Counted from the stretch's first letter, positions 3,572 to 17,100 are shown. The stretch is 64,000 nt of DNA from a virus (IMGVR_UViG_3300020469_000044:1334-65333); one strand, 5' to 3'. The notes: generated from the sequence alone by a model not told the origin. Numbers and translations: made by a program.

Positions 3572-3603
3572 AAAAAGAGGGAGAGTAGCGAACTTCTCCC
3601 TCT
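3572..3603 (-). terminator. intrinsic terminator after nrdA
   Basis: AGAGGGAGA/TCTCCCTCT inverted repeat followed by a T-run on the minus strand. Confidence 0.75.
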
Positions 3604-3658
3604 AACTTCCGTAATTAAACGGTCCTAAAGCGTGGCCACATAAAGCGCCACACTGCTT

Positions 3659-5494
3659 TTAGCCATCGCATGATACGCAATCTTCGCTAGTAGCACTTGA
3701 GGCAATGTCACCTCGTAATACACTTTCAGTTCTCATATAATAGAGAGTCTTAATACCTTGTTTATAGGCTTCTAAATGTACCATATTAATAAACTTTGGG
3801 CTTGTTGTATTTGGAAATGCAAGGTTAAGACTACATGATTGATCGATATACTGTTGTCTGACGCCTGCCTGTTTTACAAGTTCAAGTTGATTAATTTCTT
3901 TAAATGTCTTAAATACTTCCTTTGCTTCAACCCATTTAGTTTTTTCCATTGCATCAAACTTTTCCCATTCTGATTTTAAAATAACCTTACCTCCCCACAT
4001 ATTATGTTCAATCATATAGTCATCGATAAAATCTAAACCATAAATAGAACCATTATCTTCAAGAATCTTATTCCATACTGCATCTGTATTTCTATCAATT
4101 TTTTCTAAGAATTTTTCTAGTGAAATATTTTTTCTAATAAATGTACCTTTAGAAGTTTGTTCAGTAAATACATTTGCTGCCCATGGCTCAATACCTGGGC
4201 TAACATTACCGCTTAGTTTAGAATTAGTTACTGTTGGAGCTACTGCTCTTAGGTGTGTGTTTCTCATACCCGTGCCGACGCACCATAGTGGTTCTCCATA
4301 TTCTACTGCAAGTTCTCTACTTGCCGCTTCACTCTCTAATTTAATTTGAGAAAATATCTTTCTTGTTTCAAACTGTGCAGCTATGCCTTCAAATGGAATA
4401 CCTCTTTCTTGTAGATATGTATGCCAACCTAAGACACCAAGTCCAAGTGCTCTACTTTTATCAGCAGAACGTATTGAGTTCTCAAAACCTTGTCTAAATT
4501 TAGCTTTTTGAATAAACTCTTCCATAACTCCATCAAGAAACCAAGTTGCAGTTCTTATAAGATCTGTATTTTTCCACTCATCGTATTTTACAAGATTCAA
4601 TGAACTTAGACAACATATGAAACTATGATTTTCATCAGTGTGTAATGTAATTTCACTACATATATTTGTCATATAAACTTTTAAACCATTTTTAGTATAT
4701 GCTTCAGGATTGGCTCTATTAACATTCCCTTTATACATTATGTATGGTTCTCCAGTGGCTTTACGTTTTTTAATTAAGGCTGTCCAACGTTTTCTGGCTT
4801 CTTTATCACCATCTTGTATTTTTTGCATATAACTATCACTAATTACTACACATTGATGCATATTTAAACATTGTCTATTTACATCTCCTTTTGGTTCTCT
4901 AATTTCTAACCAATCCCAATAATCATCATGTTCAATATCTATATTTACTGATGCTGCTCCTCTTCTTACTGCACCTTGATTTGTAGCAAGAATTGTACTA
5001 TCGTAAATTTTACAAAATGGCACGACTCCATCTGAAGTTCCATTGTCTGTAATTTCAGCGCCTGCTGGTCTAATTTGATTTACGCCAATTCCAACTCCAC
5101 CTCCATTCTTTGCAAGTAACATCATTTCAAGATTCTTCTTTCCTATATCGTGAATAGAATCTGCGACATCAATTCCAAAACAAGAAATTGGCAATCCTCT
5201 TTCTGTACCGGTATTTGATAATACTGGAGAAGCAAGATTTAACCAACCTTTCCAAATATAATCAAAAAACTTACTTGCCATTTCTGGTCTTTTAAGTCTT
5301 TTTGCAATAGTTGTTGCGACTCTCCAATATGCATCTTTAGGAGTTTCTCCTAACATACAATATCCTTTTGAAATAGTCTTTAAATAAATTTCAGTGTGTC
5401 CCCAAACTGGATAGTCTGAGCCTCTTTCCCAACCTAGTTCTTCGGCTATTTTGTCTGCCTTAGGCGAGCTTTCTTTTTCAATAAATAGTTCCAT
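3659..5494 (-). CDS. nrdA: ribonucleotide reductase class I alpha subunit (no ATP cone)
   Basis: ISCF, GGGVG, RRGA, TNICSE catalytic loop, APT, KTLYY, C-terminal CVSC. Confidence 0.96.
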   Translation of the reverse strand: MELFIEKESSPKADKIAEELGWERGSDYPVWGHTEIYLKTISKGYCMLGETPKDAYWRVATTIAKRLKRPEMASKFFDYIWKGWLNLASPVLSNTGTERGLPISCFGIDVADSIHDIGKKNLEMMLLAKNGGGVGIGVNQIRPAGAEITDNGTSDGVVPFCKIYDSTILATNQGAVRRGAASVNIDIEHDDYWDWLEIREPKGDVNRQCLNMHQCVVISDSYMQKIQDGDKEARKRWTALIKKRKATGEPYIMYKGNVNRANPEAYTKNGLKVYMTNICSEITLHTDENHSFICCLSSLNLVKYDEWKNTDLIRTATWFLDGVMEEFIQKAKFRQGFENSIRSADKSRALGLGVLGWHTYLQERGIPFEGIAAQFETRKIFSQIKLESEAASRELAVEYGEPLWCVGTGMRNTHLRAVAPTVTNSKLSGNVSPGIEPWAANVFTEQTSKGTFIRKNISLEKFLEKIDRNTDAVWNKILEDNGSIYGLDFIDDYMIEHNMWGGKVILKSEWEKFDAMEKTKWVEAKEVFKTFKEINQLELVKQAGVRQQYIDQSCSLNLAFPNTTSPKFINMVHLEAYKQGIKTLYYMRTESVLRGDIASSATSEDCVSCDG

Positions 5495-11401: not shown

Positions 11402-11606
11402 CCTTGTTTTTGTTTACAAAGTCAATTAATTCATTTGCAATTGCCAATGCTTCATCATAGGATGCATATAAACTAAATGTTTGTGAAGTGTCTGGTTCTT
11501 CATTTGAATGGATACATACTCCGTCTTGACCTGGAGAAGGTTCTATTATTACAGATTGCTCTGCATCACATGTAAAAATCTTTATTTGTTTCCAAGGTTT
11601 ACTCAT
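11394..11606 (-). CDS. hypothetical protein
   Basis: ORF MSKPWKQIKIF...; ATG 11606 overlaps the 3' end of the upstream gene. Confidence 0.65.
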   Translation of the reverse strand: MSKPWKQIKIFTCDAEQSVIIEPSPGQDGVCIHSNEEPDTSQTFSLYASYDEALAIANELIDFVNKNKDA

Positions 11607-11880
11607 TTTCTTTGTTTTGTTGTTGCTCAATAATTTCTGTGTTCTTTTTTGCTCTTTCTTCCCACTTATCTAAATAGTCTTTTTTAGGTTTTAAATTGTT
11701 ATCGAATACTTTGTTAATATCTTCTGTTAAGATTCCTCCCTCAGATAGGGGTGCATCTAGTAAAATCTTTGCAGTGGCTAGTGCCATACCTGATTTTCCT
11801 TCTTTTAACATATCACCTAAAAGTGTGAGTTTCATTTCTGCTGGTAAACCTAAAAACCAATCTTTCTCTGCTGTCGTCAT
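11599..11880 (-). CDS. hypothetical early protein
   Basis: ATG 11880 (MTTAEKDW) preceded by the leader TTAAAACTTAAACAA. Confidence 0.7.
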   Translation of the reverse strand: MTTAEKDWFLGLPAEMKLTLLGDMLKEGKSGMALATAKILLDAPLSEGGILTEDINKVFDNNLKPKKDYLDKWEERAKKNTEIIEQQQNKENE

Positions 11881-11899
11881 TTGTTTAAGTTTTAAATTG

Positions 11900-11971
11900 T
11901 TAATCAACAACAGTTCCTGCTGTTTCAGCATGTTCTAACATTTCTTTTATTAATTTGTCTATTTTTGTCAT
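11900..11971 (-). CDS. 23-aa micro-ORF (MTKIDKLIKEMLEHAETAGTVVD)
   Basis: Has the same 20-nt leader TTAAAACTTAAACAAATGAC as the next gene; first ORF after the host-type promoter. Confidence 0.5.
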   Translation of the reverse strand: MTKIDKLIKEMLEHAETAGTVVD

Positions 11972-11981
11972 TTGTTTAAGT

Positions 11982-12062
11982 TTTAATTATATATTAAATA
12001 TAACTATTTTTGGTGACATAAAAAAATCTGGAGGTAACTTTTTTCTAAAAGTTATTAACAAT
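11982..12062 (-). promoter_or_regulatory. host-type (Bacteroidota-like) early promoter repeat, copy 1
   Basis: ATTGTTAATAACTTT...TTTTTTTATGTCACC..AATAGTTATATTTA; near-identical to 28021-28100; TATATTTA resembles the TAnnTTTG -7 element. Confidence 0.7.
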
Positions 12063-12077
12063 GTGATATTATTAAAA

Positions 12078-12560
12078 AGAGAAGATCGATTTGGTAGGAT
12101 TAGCTTTTACCTACAACTCAAATTGTCGTGTAATATATGGTGACTTTAAACATTGACTGACATCAACTTACCCGTATTTAGAATCGGCCAGACTCTTAAC
12201 ATTGGATAAAACTACTACAGTAGCTTAAATGCGTTACCCCCGACATAGGGTTTTTCCGCCATAAAACTGGAGTTTGGTTTCCCTTACCAGTACACCATTA
12301 CAGAATAGCTTCTAAGTTTAGAAGTATTCGAGAACCATCATCGAGGTCGTTATCCTCTGCTGGCTTCCATTTGGAAGATTTCCCAGTAGCCCATCGGCTT
12401 GATGTTTGTGCCTTATACCCTTCTGATCAGGTATTTTTCAGCCACAAATCTACAACTTCTTTCCCGTCGGAAGTCTGTTGCCTTCTCTAATCTCTTTCGA
12501 GATTTGTTTTTAATAATTCAATGAACGTTGTTGATCCGGTAACATTTCCTGATTATCAAC
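12078..12560 (-). ncRNA. candidate large multi-stem structured ncRNA (~410-480 nt)
   Basis: No credible ORF; GC-enriched; AGAGAAG/CTTCTCT closing stem (12482-12488 with 12078-12084) enclosing about 10 hairpins; dedicated promoter at 12566-12593. Confidence 0.75.
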
Positions 12561-12565
12561 AGTTA

Positions 12566-12593
12566 TTATATACAGTTGTTTTAAAAAGTTTCA
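12566..12593 (-). promoter_or_regulatory. TGAAAC-N15-TATATAA promoter driving the candidate ncRNA
   Basis: Exact bipartite motif; no ORF immediately downstream. Confidence 0.75.
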
Positions 12594-12601
12594 AAAAAAT
12601 T

Positions 12602-12630
12602 AAAAAAAGCCCAAATTTCTTTGGGCTTTT
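12602..12630 (-). terminator. intrinsic terminator after the internal-protein cluster
   Basis: AAAAGCCCAAA/TTTGGGCTTTT inverted repeat with a T7 tail on the minus strand. Confidence 0.8.
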
Positions 12631-12649
12631 AAAATATTATAACTTTATT

Positions 12650-13786
12650 CTATCTTTGATCTTTTGCGATGCTATTAGCTTGAGCTCTAAACTGATCCAT
12701 CATGTTTTTAGATTTTAAACCTAAATCATCAAATGCGTCTTTGCCATACCTTTTTTCTAACTCTTTATTGCTGCTTTTTAAAACTTTCATAAGCTTTTTA
12801 TATTTCTGAGTTTTTTTTCTGTATTTTGCAAATGCATCATCAACATCAGTTGGATCTGCTTCATCCATTGCTGCCATAACCTTATCAAGATGGTCTAAGT
12901 TATCAATTGCCTTGTCAAAGGCTCCTTGAACATCTAGTTCTTGAAATTGATTAATAATATCCTCTACTTCTTTTTCTTCTTTTTTTGATTCTTTTCCTCT
13001 TAACCTTGAGAAAAAACCCTCTTTTAAAGATTCACCTAAGTTTGCATAGTCTTTCGCGTATTTTTTCAACATTCTTTCGTTATAATATTCATCTAATTTA
13101 TCTAGGAAAGCTTCATGTGAATAGTCCATTCCCGGTACTAAATATTCTCCCATATATTTACCATGTGGAGAATTTAAAAAACCAATTGCTTGTTTTTCTG
13201 TCATTCCTTTATCCATTAAAACAGTAACAGCGCTTTGGTAAGCTCTTTGACGGTCTTTAGCATTTAAGTCTGACATTTCTTTAAGATATGCAACATAACC
13301 TAAACTTTTTCTAGCATCTTTAATTTTAGCTTCATCTACAGATTCGTTTTGAGCGTCAAACCATGCAATTTGCCAATCATCTATATCAAACTTATAGAAT
13401 GATACTAAGTCTGCAATTTTATCATTAGCGGCTGGATCACCATCTCCTCTTTCAACTCCAGTAACGTCACGATAATTCTTTGTAATAAATGTTGCAAGTT
13501 CCTGTTCACTTGGTCTTCTTCCTAATTCCTTTATGACTTTCTTAACGGTGTTATATCTACCAACTGCCTGATATTCTTCATTTAAAAATCCACTAAATGT
13601 AGTATGTAACATAGTTTCTTCTTTTCTATTTTTAAGATACTCTTCTCTTTCTTTCTTCTTTTTCTTTTGCTCTTTCTTAGCATCTCCTTTACCAGCAGGT
13701 ACATCTCCACTTCCTACTTCTCCACCTTGTGGAAAGGCAGGATTTCCCATACCTCCAATATTTGCTGGTGAAATGTTTTCGTTCAT
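12650..13786 (-). CDS. modular putative internal head protein
   Basis: TAATG-coupled to the upstream gene; linkers FSGFLNEE, NESVDEA and GESLKEG separate unrelated segments. Confidence 0.7.
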   Translation of the reverse strand: MNENISPANIGGMGNPAFPQGGEVGSGDVPAGKGDAKKEQKKKKKEREEYLKNRKEETMLHTTFSGFLNEEYQAVGRYNTVKKVIKELGRRPSEQELATFITKNYRDVTGVERGDGDPAANDKIADLVSFYKFDIDDWQIAWFDAQNESVDEAKIKDARKSLGYVAYLKEMSDLNAKDRQRAYQSAVTVLMDKGMTEKQAIGFLNSPHGKYMGEYLVPGMDYSHEAFLDKLDEYYNERMLKKYAKDYANLGESLKEGFFSRLRGKESKKEEKEVEDIINQFQELDVQGAFDKAIDNLDHLDKVMAAMDEADPTDVDDAFAKYRKKTQKYKKLMKVLKSSNKELEKRYGKDAFDDLGLKSKNMMDQFRAQANSIAKDQR

Positions 13787-16700
13787 TACCAAGCTAAGTT
13801 TCTTTTCTTAAGTTTACCTAAACGATCTTTAATCTCTTTAGCGTATTTCTTCATTTCATCACTGTAGTATTTTACTGTCCAAGTATCTTCTTTGTCTTCT
13901 TTTGCATTTGCAACAGTGTCAGCAGCTTTAGCCCATCTTTCATAGTCTTGCATTAAATTGTTTGTAAAGTTATTTAAGTCAGAAATTCTGTAAGCCTTTC
14001 CATCTGCACCTGTTCCCATGATAAATTCTCCATATTTATTAACTTCTCTCTTCTTAACGCCATCTGCCATTATTTTAGCAACTTCCTCAATTGCTCCTAC
14101 TACTAAATCATCAATTGGAAGTGAATTTGCTCTTTGCTGTAAGATTGCTTTATACTTTTCCATGTTATGATTTTTAAATTCTTTAGGGTCCATTAATGCA
14201 GTAGCTCCTGATTTTTGCTCTCTTCTTTTAACTTGTAAATCTCTTGAATCTGGCAATGCAGCTGTATTAATTACAAATGCAGCATCAGCAAGGTCTATCA
14301 TTCTTTTTACATTATAAACTCCAGTAGAGTCATAACCTTTATATTTTTTATTAATTCCAATATCAGATTGAGAGCGTTTATCATTTGGAGTTAAAGAATA
14401 ACCTGTTTTACCTGATTTTCTATCATAATGGTGTGTCATATATGCAACTTCTTTTCCCATGCCTATACCGAGAATAGTGTTTGCTGGGAATTTTAAATTA
14501 CTTTCAATGTACCTGTTATCATATTTGTCAGCATAGGGGTTTTCCTTTTCTTGAGTTGTATAATAAACTACTAGGCCTTCTGCTTTTTTACCTTGCTTTG
14601 GATCGATGTCTATTATTTGCTCGTCTTTAATTTGGTCTAATCTAATTTTACTAAAGCCGTAAATTGCTTTTAGTATTTTTGCATTTCCCTGTTTCATAGA
14701 AAGAAGACCTCTAAGCTTAGAACTTTTAAGTGCTTCATTAATATCTAAAGATTCGTTAACGAATTGCTGAAAGCTAGCGTGTATTGTGTTTTCTTCTATT
14801 TTATTTGATTCATATTGCTGTACCATTTGATAATGCGATTTTATAAAATTAAGAAATTTTTCATAAGAATCCTTTTGAGTTTTTGGAGTATCAAATGCTT
14901 TAAACTTATCATGTTTAAATACTTTCTTTATAAAGTCTTCTACATTTTTTGCCGTTCTTGCGATACCTGTTAACTTTGCAGTAAAGCTTTCGTCTAATTT
15001 AAAAGATTCTAGATAATCTTCTCCACCTTGTTCGAAGTCATCCATTGCAGCTTCTAATTCCTTTTTAGAAAAACCTGCTTTTTTGCCAGCTTTCATATAT
15101 TCCTTTTCATCTTTAAATGAATCTATATTTGCTGTAAACCAATCTTTTATAGATTTTTCATTAAGAGATTCATTTATAAACTGATCAAAGTCTGTATATA
15201 TTGTTGATTCTTTCATTGCTTTTGACTGTTGTTTAAGTTCTTCATATTCACCCTTAAGGTTTTTTGTATATCTATCAATTCCCCAATTAAATGAAGCCTT
15301 AAAAATATGTTCAAATGGAAGTCCATTATATTTTCTACCGTATGCTGATTGACTTAACCAGTCTAAGTATGCCTGGGCCATTTCTTTAGAAAGTTTAATA
15401 CCTTCAACCTCCGATGCAAAACCTTTAGCAACGTCTTTTAACATTTGAGTTGCTTTTGCTCTTTCATTGATTTCTACCGATTCTTTGATACCTAAAAAGT
15501 CTGCTGCTGCAGATTTAAGTTCTGCATAAGTATATTTTCCTTTTAATGCATCGCTAAGAATAGTTCCTTCTTTTTTACCACCTCCAACATACATTGATAC
15601 ATGATCGAAGCCTAACCAATCTCCTCCTGAAAATTCATGATCTGGATTCATACCTAATTCTACTGAAAGAGTATATGATAAAGACCTTTTTCCAATAAAT
15701 TGATCGTTATAACCGAGTTTTCCGGCTTTTACATATCCGGCTGGATTGACCTTTGCCTCGTTAATGTTTTCTTTTTTTATATTTGTTTTAATATTTTCGT
15801 CCATTTTATCACCGTTAGGTTTTTTACCAGTTTTAATAGCATAAGAAACTACTTCCTTAGTATTAAATGCAGGTTTTGGAGCCTTACCTCCATTATATTC
15901 TTTATCCCATTTTGCAATAGATTTATCATCTTCTAAATCAAATTCACCATTCTTATATGCTTCAATTGCTTTCATAGTAAATTGAGAGTCCCAAGATTTT
16001 GGTGCCTTAGCTTCATTAACTGATTCTGTCATTACTAACGCTATATCTTTATAATCTATCTCATACTCATCTCCATCTTGGTCAACTGCAAATACTGATT
16101 TATCATGCCACATCTCAGCATTATCATCATTGTTAGAATCAGGATTGTAGATGATGTATTCTTTTCCATCTCCGGTTTGAATTGTTGCATCGTCTGCATC
16201 ACCTAATCTTTTTAATAATTTTTTCTTATCATATCTAGCTTCATTAACTGATTCTAAAATATCAAATATGTGAAAACCTCCACCTGTCATTTTATCTGAC
16301 CATTCAACATGCTTAAGTTCAACATCTGGCTCAACCTTCTTAATAGAATCAATTACCGTTTGTGGGTTAATCTTGTAACCATACATGATTTGAATTCTTT
16401 TCTTGTTAAGTTTAGTAATTTTTGGCTTAGTATTACCTGTGTAGTCTATTGCCAATTGATATGCAATATCAGATTTGTTTAAAGCTTCATCTAATGATTC
16501 TTTAGCAAGCTTGCCAAAATGTTTCTTAAAAAAAGTAATAAAGTCTTTGGTACTGTCATCCATGTGTCCAACCTTTAAACCATTATGAGCAGCGTTTATT
16601 ACACTACCATCATCTATAATCATATAAGTGCCTCCATCAAATTCATCTCCATCATAATCTAAATCAAATGAATCTTCCTCTAATGTTTTCATGTTAACTG

Positions 16701-17100
16701 TACATTTAACTTTGTCAACTTTACTTATTGCTTCTGCAATTTTTTTAGCAACTTCTAATGTTTCATCCTTTGTAAGTCCCATAGGTTTTTTAGTTCCTAT
16801 TGCTTCATTTACAGGTTGAATAGTTTTAAGAACTTTTTTACCATAACCTGAAAGGCTTACGCCGTCTTCTTCTATTTTAAAAAATCTTTTATTTCCTCTT
16901 GTCCATTTTGATGGAGCTAAAGAGTGTTGACTGACTATTTCATTAAATTCATCAACTGTAATTTTACCGTCCTTTAATGCTTCGATAATTGCATTTCTAA
17001 CTCTAGCTGAATTGCCTACGGTTTTAGCGGGATGTGCTTCAGTATATCTTCTTTTAAGAGTTATATTTTTTTCATTTAAAAAATCTTTGAATGTTGCCAT
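13786..17100 (-). CDS. 1104-aa modular putative head-packaged polyprotein
   Basis: N-terminal MATFKDFLNEK; about 9 internal (E)S[VLI][ND]E[AK]-type linkers; GATATATAA upstream at 17129-17137. Confidence 0.75.
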   Translation of the reverse strand: MATFKDFLNEKNITLKRRYTEAHPAKTVGNSARVRNAIIEALKDGKITVDEFNEIVSQHSLAPSKWTRGNKRFFKIEEDGVSLSGYGKKVLKTIQPVNEAIGTKKPMGLTKDETLEVAKKIAEAISKVDKVKCTVNMKTLEEDSFDLDYDGDEFDGGTYMIIDDGSVINAAHNGLKVGHMDDSTKDFITFFKKHFGKLAKESLDEALNKSDIAYQLAIDYTGNTKPKITKLNKKRIQIMYGYKINPQTVIDSIKKVEPDVELKHVEWSDKMTGGGFHIFDILESVNEARYDKKKLLKRLGDADDATIQTGDGKEYIIYNPDSNNDDNAEMWHDKSVFAVDQDGDEYEIDYKDIALVMTESVNEAKAPKSWDSQFTMKAIEAYKNGEFDLEDDKSIAKWDKEYNGGKAPKPAFNTKEVVSYAIKTGKKPNGDKMDENIKTNIKKENINEAKVNPAGYVKAGKLGYNDQFIGKRSLSYTLSVELGMNPDHEFSGGDWLGFDHVSMYVGGGKKEGTILSDALKGKYTYAELKSAAADFLGIKESVEINERAKATQMLKDVAKGFASEVEGIKLSKEMAQAYLDWLSQSAYGRKYNGLPFEHIFKASFNWGIDRYTKNLKGEYEELKQQSKAMKESTIYTDFDQFINESLNEKSIKDWFTANIDSFKDEKEYMKAGKKAGFSKKELEAAMDDFEQGGEDYLESFKLDESFTAKLTGIARTAKNVEDFIKKVFKHDKFKAFDTPKTQKDSYEKFLNFIKSHYQMVQQYESNKIEENTIHASFQQFVNESLDINEALKSSKLRGLLSMKQGNAKILKAIYGFSKIRLDQIKDEQIIDIDPKQGKKAEGLVVYYTTQEKENPYADKYDNRYIESNLKFPANTILGIGMGKEVAYMTHHYDRKSGKTGYSLTPNDKRSQSDIGINKKYKGYDSTGVYNVKRMIDLADAAFVINTAALPDSRDLQVKRREQKSGATALMDPKEFKNHNMEKYKAILQQRANSLPIDDLVVGAIEEVAKIMADGVKKREVNKYGEFIMGTGADGKAYRISDLNNFTNNLMQDYERWAKAADTVANAKEDKEDTWTVKYYSDEMKKYAKEIKDRLGKLKKRNLAW
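16008..16255. repeat. 20-bp exact direct repeat (16008-16027, 16236-16255) encoding the ESVNEA linker
   Basis: tagcttcattaactgattct occurs twice, flanking one 76-codon module. Confidence 0.85.

Follow-up and report, generated by a model that had tools for sequence, protein, structure and literature searches.

Tandem-aptamer riboswitches, such as the glycine riboswitch, hold two homologous structured modules in one RNA. The manA RNA has, to our knowledge, been an unexplained riboswitch candidate since 2010, and is hardly known outside T4-like cyanophages and marine metagenomes. Weinberg et al. (2010, PMC2864571), in the part covered here, count it among the probable cis-regulatory riboswitch candidates, and the covered parts of that paper and of a second one (PMC9964418) name no known ligand, partner or phenotype for it. 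Among the titles and abstract openings surveyed, none shows a long, tandem or free-standing form of manA. ROOL and GOLLD are described, in the covered part of a preprint (bioRxiv 10.1101/2024.12.08.627333), as large phage RNAs that are highly abundant and often found near tRNA islands.

The locus described here lies in a 64,000-nucleotide stretch of viral DNA (hereafter the window), which corresponds to bases 1334-65333 of a virus record of 65.3 kb in IMG/VR; the CheckV completeness of the record is 25%, making it a fragment of a jumbo phage. A structured RNA on the minus strand of this window, at 12074-12560, is almost certainly real. We would classify it as an enlarged form related to the known motif manA, and not as a wholly new class; the relationship to manA itself is probable.

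Genome setting and extent of the RNA locus

The minus strand carries 50 of the 52 window ORFs of at least 100 aa, each one a plausible gene. Only two ORFs of this size lie on the plus strand, one of 108 and one of 154 aa, and both overlap an ORF on the minus strand. Because the DNA polymerase encoded in the window is nearest to those of uncultured huge phages (47% identity), followed by those of Lak and Chryseobacterium phages (32.5-36%), the phage is judged not to be a T4-like cyanophage. PHROGs and Pfam searches with six neighbouring proteins were uninformative: the only matches were to a PHROG of unknown function and, weakly and below threshold, to a Pfam family. The 1104-aa protein encoded upstream (window 13786-17100) matched no PHROG or Pfam family; it is mosaic in relatives L002-L012, with blocks of 50-90% identity and pieces that are absent or reordered, and in L002 the 380-aa gene is followed by additional fragments of it.

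We consider it reasonably likely that a free-standing gene in this region encodes a stable structured RNA about 485 nt long, and likely that the RNA is made as a separate transcript. The features of the locus are given below in the direction of transcription; helix numbers are those of the consensus fold.

12605..12630, minus strand: intrinsic terminator of the upstream 380-aa gene (12650-13792), an 11-pair stem plus T-run; left edge of the RNA cassette
12565..12594, minus strand: sigma-70-like promoter, with -35 TTGAAA at 12594-12589, an 18-nt spacer and -10 TATAAT at 12570-12565
12530..12560, minus strand: 5'-terminal leader hairpin GUUGAU..AUCAAC, read from sequence and alignment
12489..12504, minus strand: GNRA hairpin AAUCUC-GAAA-GAGAUU (helix 1), with UCUC/GAGA invariant in 7/7 sequences
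12482..12488, minus strand: 5' strand of P0, (A)GAGAAG, the outer closing helix with its partner at 12084-12079; invariant in 7/7, covariation silent
12321..12475, minus strand: domain 1, manA-like P1-P2-P3 (helices 3-10), with compensatory change in helices 4, 8 and 9
12303..12329, minus strand: hairpin H, GAAUA-CUUCUAA / UUAGAAG-C-UAUUC, from the single-sequence fold and not in the consensus fold
12137..12298, minus strand: domain 2, closed by AUGGUG/CACCAU (12298-93 / 12142-37; helices 12-20), with compensatory change in six of nine helices
12094..12114, minus strand: P5 hairpin GUAGG-UAAAAGCUAAU-CCUAC (helix 21), with U-A changed to C-G in 2/7 sequences
12088..12093, minus strand: CAAAUC, predicted partner of GAUUUG (12450-12445) in helix 5; invariant in 7/7, covariation silent
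12074..12084, minus strand: 3' strand of P0, CUUCUC (12084-12079), and U5 (12078-12074), the probable 3' end of the RNA; invariant in 7/7
11972..12062, minus strand: right edge of the cassette, formed by a separate promoter-like module (GTTAATAACT..AAAAAAGTT.CCTC..TATAATTAAAACTTAAAC) that belongs to the downstream genes

The first-pass annotation had described this region as free of credible ORFs, elevated in G+C, insulated by a terminator and provided with its own promoter, and each of these points was borne out. The minus strand has no ORF of 30 aa or more between 11932 and 12649, and the plus strand over the RNA region has only short frames of 39-65 aa. G+C is 0.385-0.435 in 200-nt windows spanning 12100-12499, falling to 0.235 and 0.265 in the flanks (11900-12099 and 12500-12699, respectively). 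The terminator was located on the minus strand at 12630..12605, with 11 pairs followed by a T-run, and an equivalent hairpin and T-run also precede the RNA in the homologues. The promoter, TTGAAA-18-TATAAT at 12594..12565, matches at 11 of 12 positions; its core TGAAACTTTTT.AAAC..TATATAA is invariant in all six homologues that cover that part, and the exact motif occurs once in the window. Transcription would start at about 12556-12560. The leader hairpin that follows is kept although its sequence varies by lineage, reading GUUAUU..AAUAAC in the others. At the opposite end all seven sequences terminate in CUUCUCUUUUU and then diverge at once, which is where we place transcript termination, at P0 and U5.

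The earlier suggestion to look for a transcript in RNA-seq data could be followed up in public libraries. Among the 24 runs listed, 20 (from 12 studies) contain at least part of the stretch, and seven are recorded as RNA. We aligned four metatranscriptome runs from four marine studies to 11600-13100. Run X9 gave one 421-nt contig, which lies over its whole length (421/421 nt) on 12129-12549 and so reaches into the leader hairpin region; X17 gave one 416-nt contig (414/416 nt on 12128-12539), and X14 one of 450 nt (435/450 nt on 12103-12535). Run X11 gave short pieces spanning 12077-12470 at a word depth of 101-442, one of which extends to 12077, together with a neighbouring-gene piece (12864-13100) at a depth of 5.9; word depth is a poor measure, and strand, exact ends and level of the RNA are not readable from assembled contigs. 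These four runs have no contig over 11600-12058 or 12569-12823, and such missing cover is not evidence in either direction. The near-RNA-only contigs hint at a discrete, abundant RNA, repeatedly so in four studies.

Homologues were found in two IMG/VR and nine metagenome contigs, representing seven distinct sequences. These fall into three lineages, one formed by the window alone, one by L171 and L169, and one by L008, L168, L176 and L027. When 27 IMG/VR loci were fetched via the flanking proteins, the RNA was present in only two contigs, at 76% identity. A blastn search in distant mode with 11900-12700 found no match among 50,697 phage records. Two 15-mer scans of IMG/VR returned 65 and 70 stretches, with the same two true homologues (L029 and L030) in each; the other nhmmer matches of these scans, in 17 loci, were short (E = 0.035-0.92) and were rejected. 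Two further IMG/VR DNA patterns recovered only known contigs and L189, and the four scans gave no further copy of the RNA. A scan of genome contigs yielded two stretches and no homologue (best E = 0.16), and the metagenome scan yielded 14 stretches, nine of them true homologues and five chance matches.

Genomic context and mode of action

The RNA behaves as a cassette between two fixed edges. In the window and in L171, the promoter-like module comes after the RNA, and in relatives without the RNA (L003, L004 and L009) the same module adjoins the terminator of the 380-aa gene. Nine close relatives have the 380-aa gene, a gap and a 151-aa gene, and the RNA is absent from all nine; the six of these gaps that were read contain instead an ORF of 91-103 aa with 22-24% G+C. 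The first gene after the RNA differs in the four contexts available. The module itself, in the form GTTAATAACT..AAAAAAGTT.CCTC..TAGTTATATT..TATAATTAAAACTTAAAC, stands ahead of differing small genes in the window, L003, L004, L009 and L171, and may represent a phage-specific promoter class. A 23-codon ORF (MTKIDKLIKEMLEHAETAGTVVD) at 11900-11971 on the minus strand lies between the module and a 110-aa gene, overlapping the start of the latter.

A tmRNA gene lies 0.7-2.5 kb downstream of the RNA in L008, L027, L176 and L168, and is followed by tRNA-Leu(UAA) and tRNA-Arg(UCU) in three of these four loci (L027, L176 and L168), L008 ending at the tmRNA. The tmRNA/tRNA loci are at L008:6582-6921, L027:2911-3434, L176:2567-3079 and L168:6796-7796. 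The tmRNA of these relatives is of the one-piece type, with tags GNAEYAMAA or GEVEYAMAA. ARAGORN and the Rfam models found no tRNA or tmRNA in the window.

The RNA is thus a free-standing cassette, unlike cyanophage manA. In P-SSM2, manA is about 200 nt long, begins just past its own promoter, which is also sigma-70-like and directly upstream, and ends 15 nt before a purL-annotated gene. The context of manA also varies across the seven cyanophage loci examined: the next CDS after manA is on the opposite strand in P-TIM68 (L186) and 135 nt away in P-RSM4 (L185), and both contexts fit poorly with a purely cis-regulatory manA. Annotated 'hypothetical protein' CDSs of 32-68 aa overlie the manA match in P-HM2 (L182:758-932), S-SSM5 (L183:705-911) and P-SSM4 (L184:741-914), and are probably spurious ORF calls. 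Among three cyanophage records tried, one has a manA match; Syn9 and S-RSM4 have none.

If the present RNA instead worked as a cis-acting tandem riboswitch or attenuator, its modules would sense a metabolite and P0, beside the U-run, would decide between termination and readthrough into the small genes. The status of manA as a probable cis-regulatory candidate in the covered part of PMC2864571, the position of true manA just ahead of the purL-annotated gene in P-SSM2, the terminator-like appearance of P0 followed by U5, the common strand of all the genes, and the next ORF lying only about 60-65 nt past the U-run in the L008 and L169 contexts are in keeping with such a switch. Against it stand the varying downstream gene, the absence of the RNA from nine close relatives, and the promoter module that the downstream genes of the window and L171 share with RNA-less relatives; moreover, among the pieces listed for the four RNA runs, none joins the RNA to downstream genes. 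We consider the cis-acting switch unlikely. A stable binding RNA is favoured over it, because the genes downstream are not constant and retain a promoter of their own.

The binding RNA could work as follows. A sigma-70-type polymerase would start it at its own promoter. The transcript would open with the terminal hairpin and fold into about 20 helices, the outer helix GAGAAG/CUUCUC clamping both ends, and the U5 tail after P0 would either terminate the transcript or protect its 3' end. The compact, nuclease-resistant product may then bind a small molecule or a host factor during infection through its two conserved manA-type modules. Since there is no fixed downstream gene, action in trans can tentatively be proposed, at somewhat less than even weight. 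The locus weakens the assumption that an RNA with the manA fold has to act in cis upon the gene that follows it, and it would provide structural studies and ligand screens with an RNA that is abundant in nature.

Resemblance to manA and to other large RNAs

The first-pass annotation had allowed for a new RNA class, and a search of Rfam points elsewhere. No family reached its gathering cut-off in the window, but under permissive scoring manA (RF01745; cut-off 55.2 bits) came out on top for the 3' half of every lineage and for the 5' half of two of the three, with all scores below the cut-off. On the 3' half manA was the single best of 4227 families, with full-length alignments, in the window (12297..12085; 32.9 bits, E = 1.4e-6), L171 (33.9 bits, E = 6.8e-7) and L008 (25.8 bits, E = 0.0033). 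The 5' half matches manA model positions 1-134 and the tail, with 20.5 bits in the window (E = 0.0016 in a 225-nt search) and 19.3 bits in L171 (E = 0.016); the L008-lineage match was not significant (8.8 bits, E = 5.1). Our own model of the 3' half recognises the P2 element within the 5' half (E = 0.004). In the reverse test, the same model gave no whole-domain match in seven true cyanophage manA loci (best E = 0.12), hitting only the P5 hairpin, weakly but in the correct place, in six of the seven (E = 0.12-2.3). Weak Rfam matches to CRISPR-DR17, STnc430 and snoRNA families were set aside as hairpin or terminator look-alikes.

The resemblance can be followed element by element. Domain 1 comprises P1 with a GACG loop, then GAUUUG (12450-12445), P2 (UGGCUGAAAAA..UAAGGCA) and three hairpins (AGCC/GGCU, CUUCC/GGAAG and GAGG/CCUC). 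In domain 2, P1' (ACUGG/CCAGU) has a 16-nt loop that does not vary; P2' follows as GCG..ACCCU/GGGGU..CGC, and after it UUUAAGC/GUUUAAA closes a junction of three hairpins. The P2 internal loop of manA (consensus UGaCUGAAUAAaCUU .. UAAgGu) is present with high posterior probability in both domains, as UGGCUGAAAAAUACC..GGGUAUAAGGCA in domain 1 and UGGCGGAAAAACCCU..GGGGGUAACGCA in domain 2, and its inner stem covaries (helix 16); the shared form is UG.CUGAA.AA .. UAAGG. The P3 junction is found in domain 2, where UUUAAGC/GUUUAAA encloses its three hairpins, all with compensatory change (helices 17-20). The three hairpins of domain 1 also align to the model, and their closing CAUC/GAUG is invariant though absent from the consensus fold. 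The part most like the manA consensus is P5 (UGugGGUAuacAguAAUCCcaC), which is matched by UUGUAGGUAAAAGCUAAUCCUAC at a posterior probability near 1 and shares the loop ..UAA..AAUCC. The manA closing helix, which runs from the P1/P2 junction to the tail after P5 (consensus GGGaG/CuCCC), has a possible counterpart in the predicted pairing of GAUUUG (12450-45) with CAAAUC (12093-88) at the corresponding positions; both strands are invariant, and the consensus fold that pairs them was made without reference to manA.

The long P4 hairpin of manA is not matched, its model positions being deleted or of low probability in the alignments; in its place are hairpin H and the domain closed by AUGGUG/CACCAU, a closure with one compensatory pair. 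In the L008 lineage the hairpin H stretch reads AGUAG..AGCU..AGCU..CUAUU, and by our reading of the alignment a hairpin is also possible there. The RNA also departs from manA in its position, which is not that of a 5' UTR: four different genes follow it, and a separate downstream promoter module is present in two contexts. We read the RNA as a manA-type core (P1, a predicted closing helix, P2, three-hairpin P3 and P5) in which an insert of about 160 nt at the P4 position repeats P1-P2-P3. That these are two manA-like modules produced by a nested duplication, one inside the other, we hold to be about evenly balanced. Any likeness to the glycine riboswitch is one of architecture only, and the modules here appear nested, not side by side. 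The RNA and manA have in common their marine phage origin and the order of their elements; they differ in score (20-34 bits, compared with 181.6 bits for the true manA of P-SSM2), in a length about 2.5 times greater, in the large branched P4 insert, in the added outer helix P0, GNRA hairpin and leader hairpin, and in the lack of a fixed downstream gene and of a T4-like cyanophage host genome. A manA-like RNA that is this much larger, independently transcribed and internally duplicated, in an unrelated group of marine jumbo phages, would mean that the manA fold is spread more widely, and is more modular, than the Rfam model allows for.

A bolder proposal is that manA-type RNAs are not riboswitches but a wider superfamily of free-standing phage RNAs, of which the present one is a covalent pseudo-dimer, one copy nested in the P4 of the other. 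We regard this as improbable. If true, ordinary manA RNAs would act in trans on a host target as dimers or higher assemblies, like OLE, ROOL and GOLLD.

The RNA might also belong to a class unrelated to manA, its likeness arising by convergence or as a scoring artefact in an AT-rich, hairpin-rich RNA, and its nature being that of a ROOL/GOLLD-like RNA-only assembly linked to a tRNA/tmRNA island. The sub-threshold scores of all manA matches and the non-significant reverse search leave room for this, as do the tmRNA and tRNAs downstream in the relatives, given that ROOL and GOLLD often lie near tRNA islands (covered part of bioRxiv 10.1101/2024.12.08.627333). It is difficult to reconcile, however, with full-length alignments to manA as the best family in every lineage, and with the shared order of the P2 loop (UG.C.GAA.AA / UAA.G), three-hairpin junction, P5 loop and predicted closing helix. 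The first-pass comparison with ROOL and GOLLD found a parallel in the tRNA-gene proximity of the relatives, but failed at the level of models: at E up to 10, the 19 matches found in 11850-12750 include neither ROOL (RF03087) nor GOLLD (RF01998), and neither has a gathering-score match in the window, which in addition has no tRNA or tmRNA of its own. Like ROOL and GOLLD, this is a large, many-helix phage RNA, carried in relatives upstream of a tmRNA/tRNA island, but at about 485 nt it is smaller. By our reading of the seven-sequence alignment, none of the self-complementary loops capable of kissing contacts is conserved across lineages. An unrelated class is, in our estimate, quite unlikely. 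Whatever its class, the RNA enlarges by one the small group of large, ornate RNAs that phages carry beside tRNA/tmRNA islands. The earlier statement that the region bears no tmRNA, RNase P or group I/II signature agrees with the absence of any such Rfam or ARAGORN match in the window.

A second large manA-like RNA, apparently unrelated to this one, was seen at L189:3705-4053, in an 87-kb IMG/VR contig from a different phage, within an ORF-free 600-nt gap (3580-4184). It matches manA over P1-P3 with 22.7 bits (E = 8.8e-4) and has a fold z-score of -2.11. After P1-P3 come about 190 nt, and beyond them a hairpin resembling P5 (UUGCAGGGAAAACUUAAUCCUG) together with the closing helix GUGGUCUU/AAGACCAC; the RNA is flanked by a repeated TTTCTCTTTTCAACTCCT motif. 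This locus points to P4-expanded relatives of manA in other phages.

Consensus fold and covariation

The first-pass annotation had proposed a large multi-helix RNA, to be checked against shuffled controls and for covariation among homologues, and both checks uphold it. The minus strand folds at -131.7 kcal/mol (z = -2.66), and none of 100 shuffles folds as well; for the plus strand z is -2.06, with 4 of 100 shuffles as good. A consensus fold of 113 pairs in 21 helices was built from the seven distinct sequences of the three lineages. Standard pairs occupy 98.9% of its pair cells, compared with 37.7-48.5% in slid controls, where the 3' partners are displaced by 1-3 columns. Both-sided change was seen in 23 of the 113 pairs, as against 0-3 in the slid controls, a count that none of 500 shuffles reached but that comes from three lineages only and from the same alignment from which the structure was derived. 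Compensatory changes fall in 10 of the 21 helices, and the invariant G-U pairs are compatible with the minus strand only. That the element is decayed gene or spacer DNA folding by chance, as its modest z-score and its absence from most relatives might suggest, is very improbable in view of this pairing and covariation, the conserved promoter and ends, the RNA-only contigs in four studies and the lack of any conserved reading frame.

Most of the individual helices drawn in the first-pass annotation reappear in the consensus fold. The AATCTC-GAAA-GAGATT hairpin is present as UCUC-GAAA-GAGA, and the closing stem as GAGAAG/CUUCUC (12487-82 / 12084-79), which never varies and is therefore neutral as to covariation. 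The inner ATACC/GGTAT appears as AUACCU/GGGUAU, and GAGG/CCUC and ACUGG/CCAGU were recovered as drawn. Compensatory change accompanies four others: the UUC/GGG part of the TTCC..GGAA hairpin, CUUCC/GGAAG from CTTCCA/TGGAAG, AUGGUG/CACCAU, and GUAGG/CCUAC.

Three further helices stood in part. CTACTGG/CCAGCAG is lineage-specific, with a 4-nt deletion at that place in the L008 lineage, and TTTGTG/CACAAA shrinks to UGUGGC/GCACA in one lineage. The pairing AAGCTACT/AGTAGTTT is partly right, but its outer part pairs long-range instead, as UUUAAGC/GUUUAAA, with two compensatory pairs. Hairpin H (GAATA-CTTCTAA/TTAGAAG-C-TATTC) is seen in the single-sequence fold but is absent from the consensus fold. 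We left out the consensus-fold helix GAUGGUU/AGCUAUU, which is invariant and has three G-U pairs and a 23-nt loop, since it clashes with hairpin H as well as with the manA-like CAUC/GAUG closure. Two of the base differences between the metatranscriptome contigs and the window keep the pairing, G-U becoming G-C at 12152 and C-G becoming U-G at 12431.
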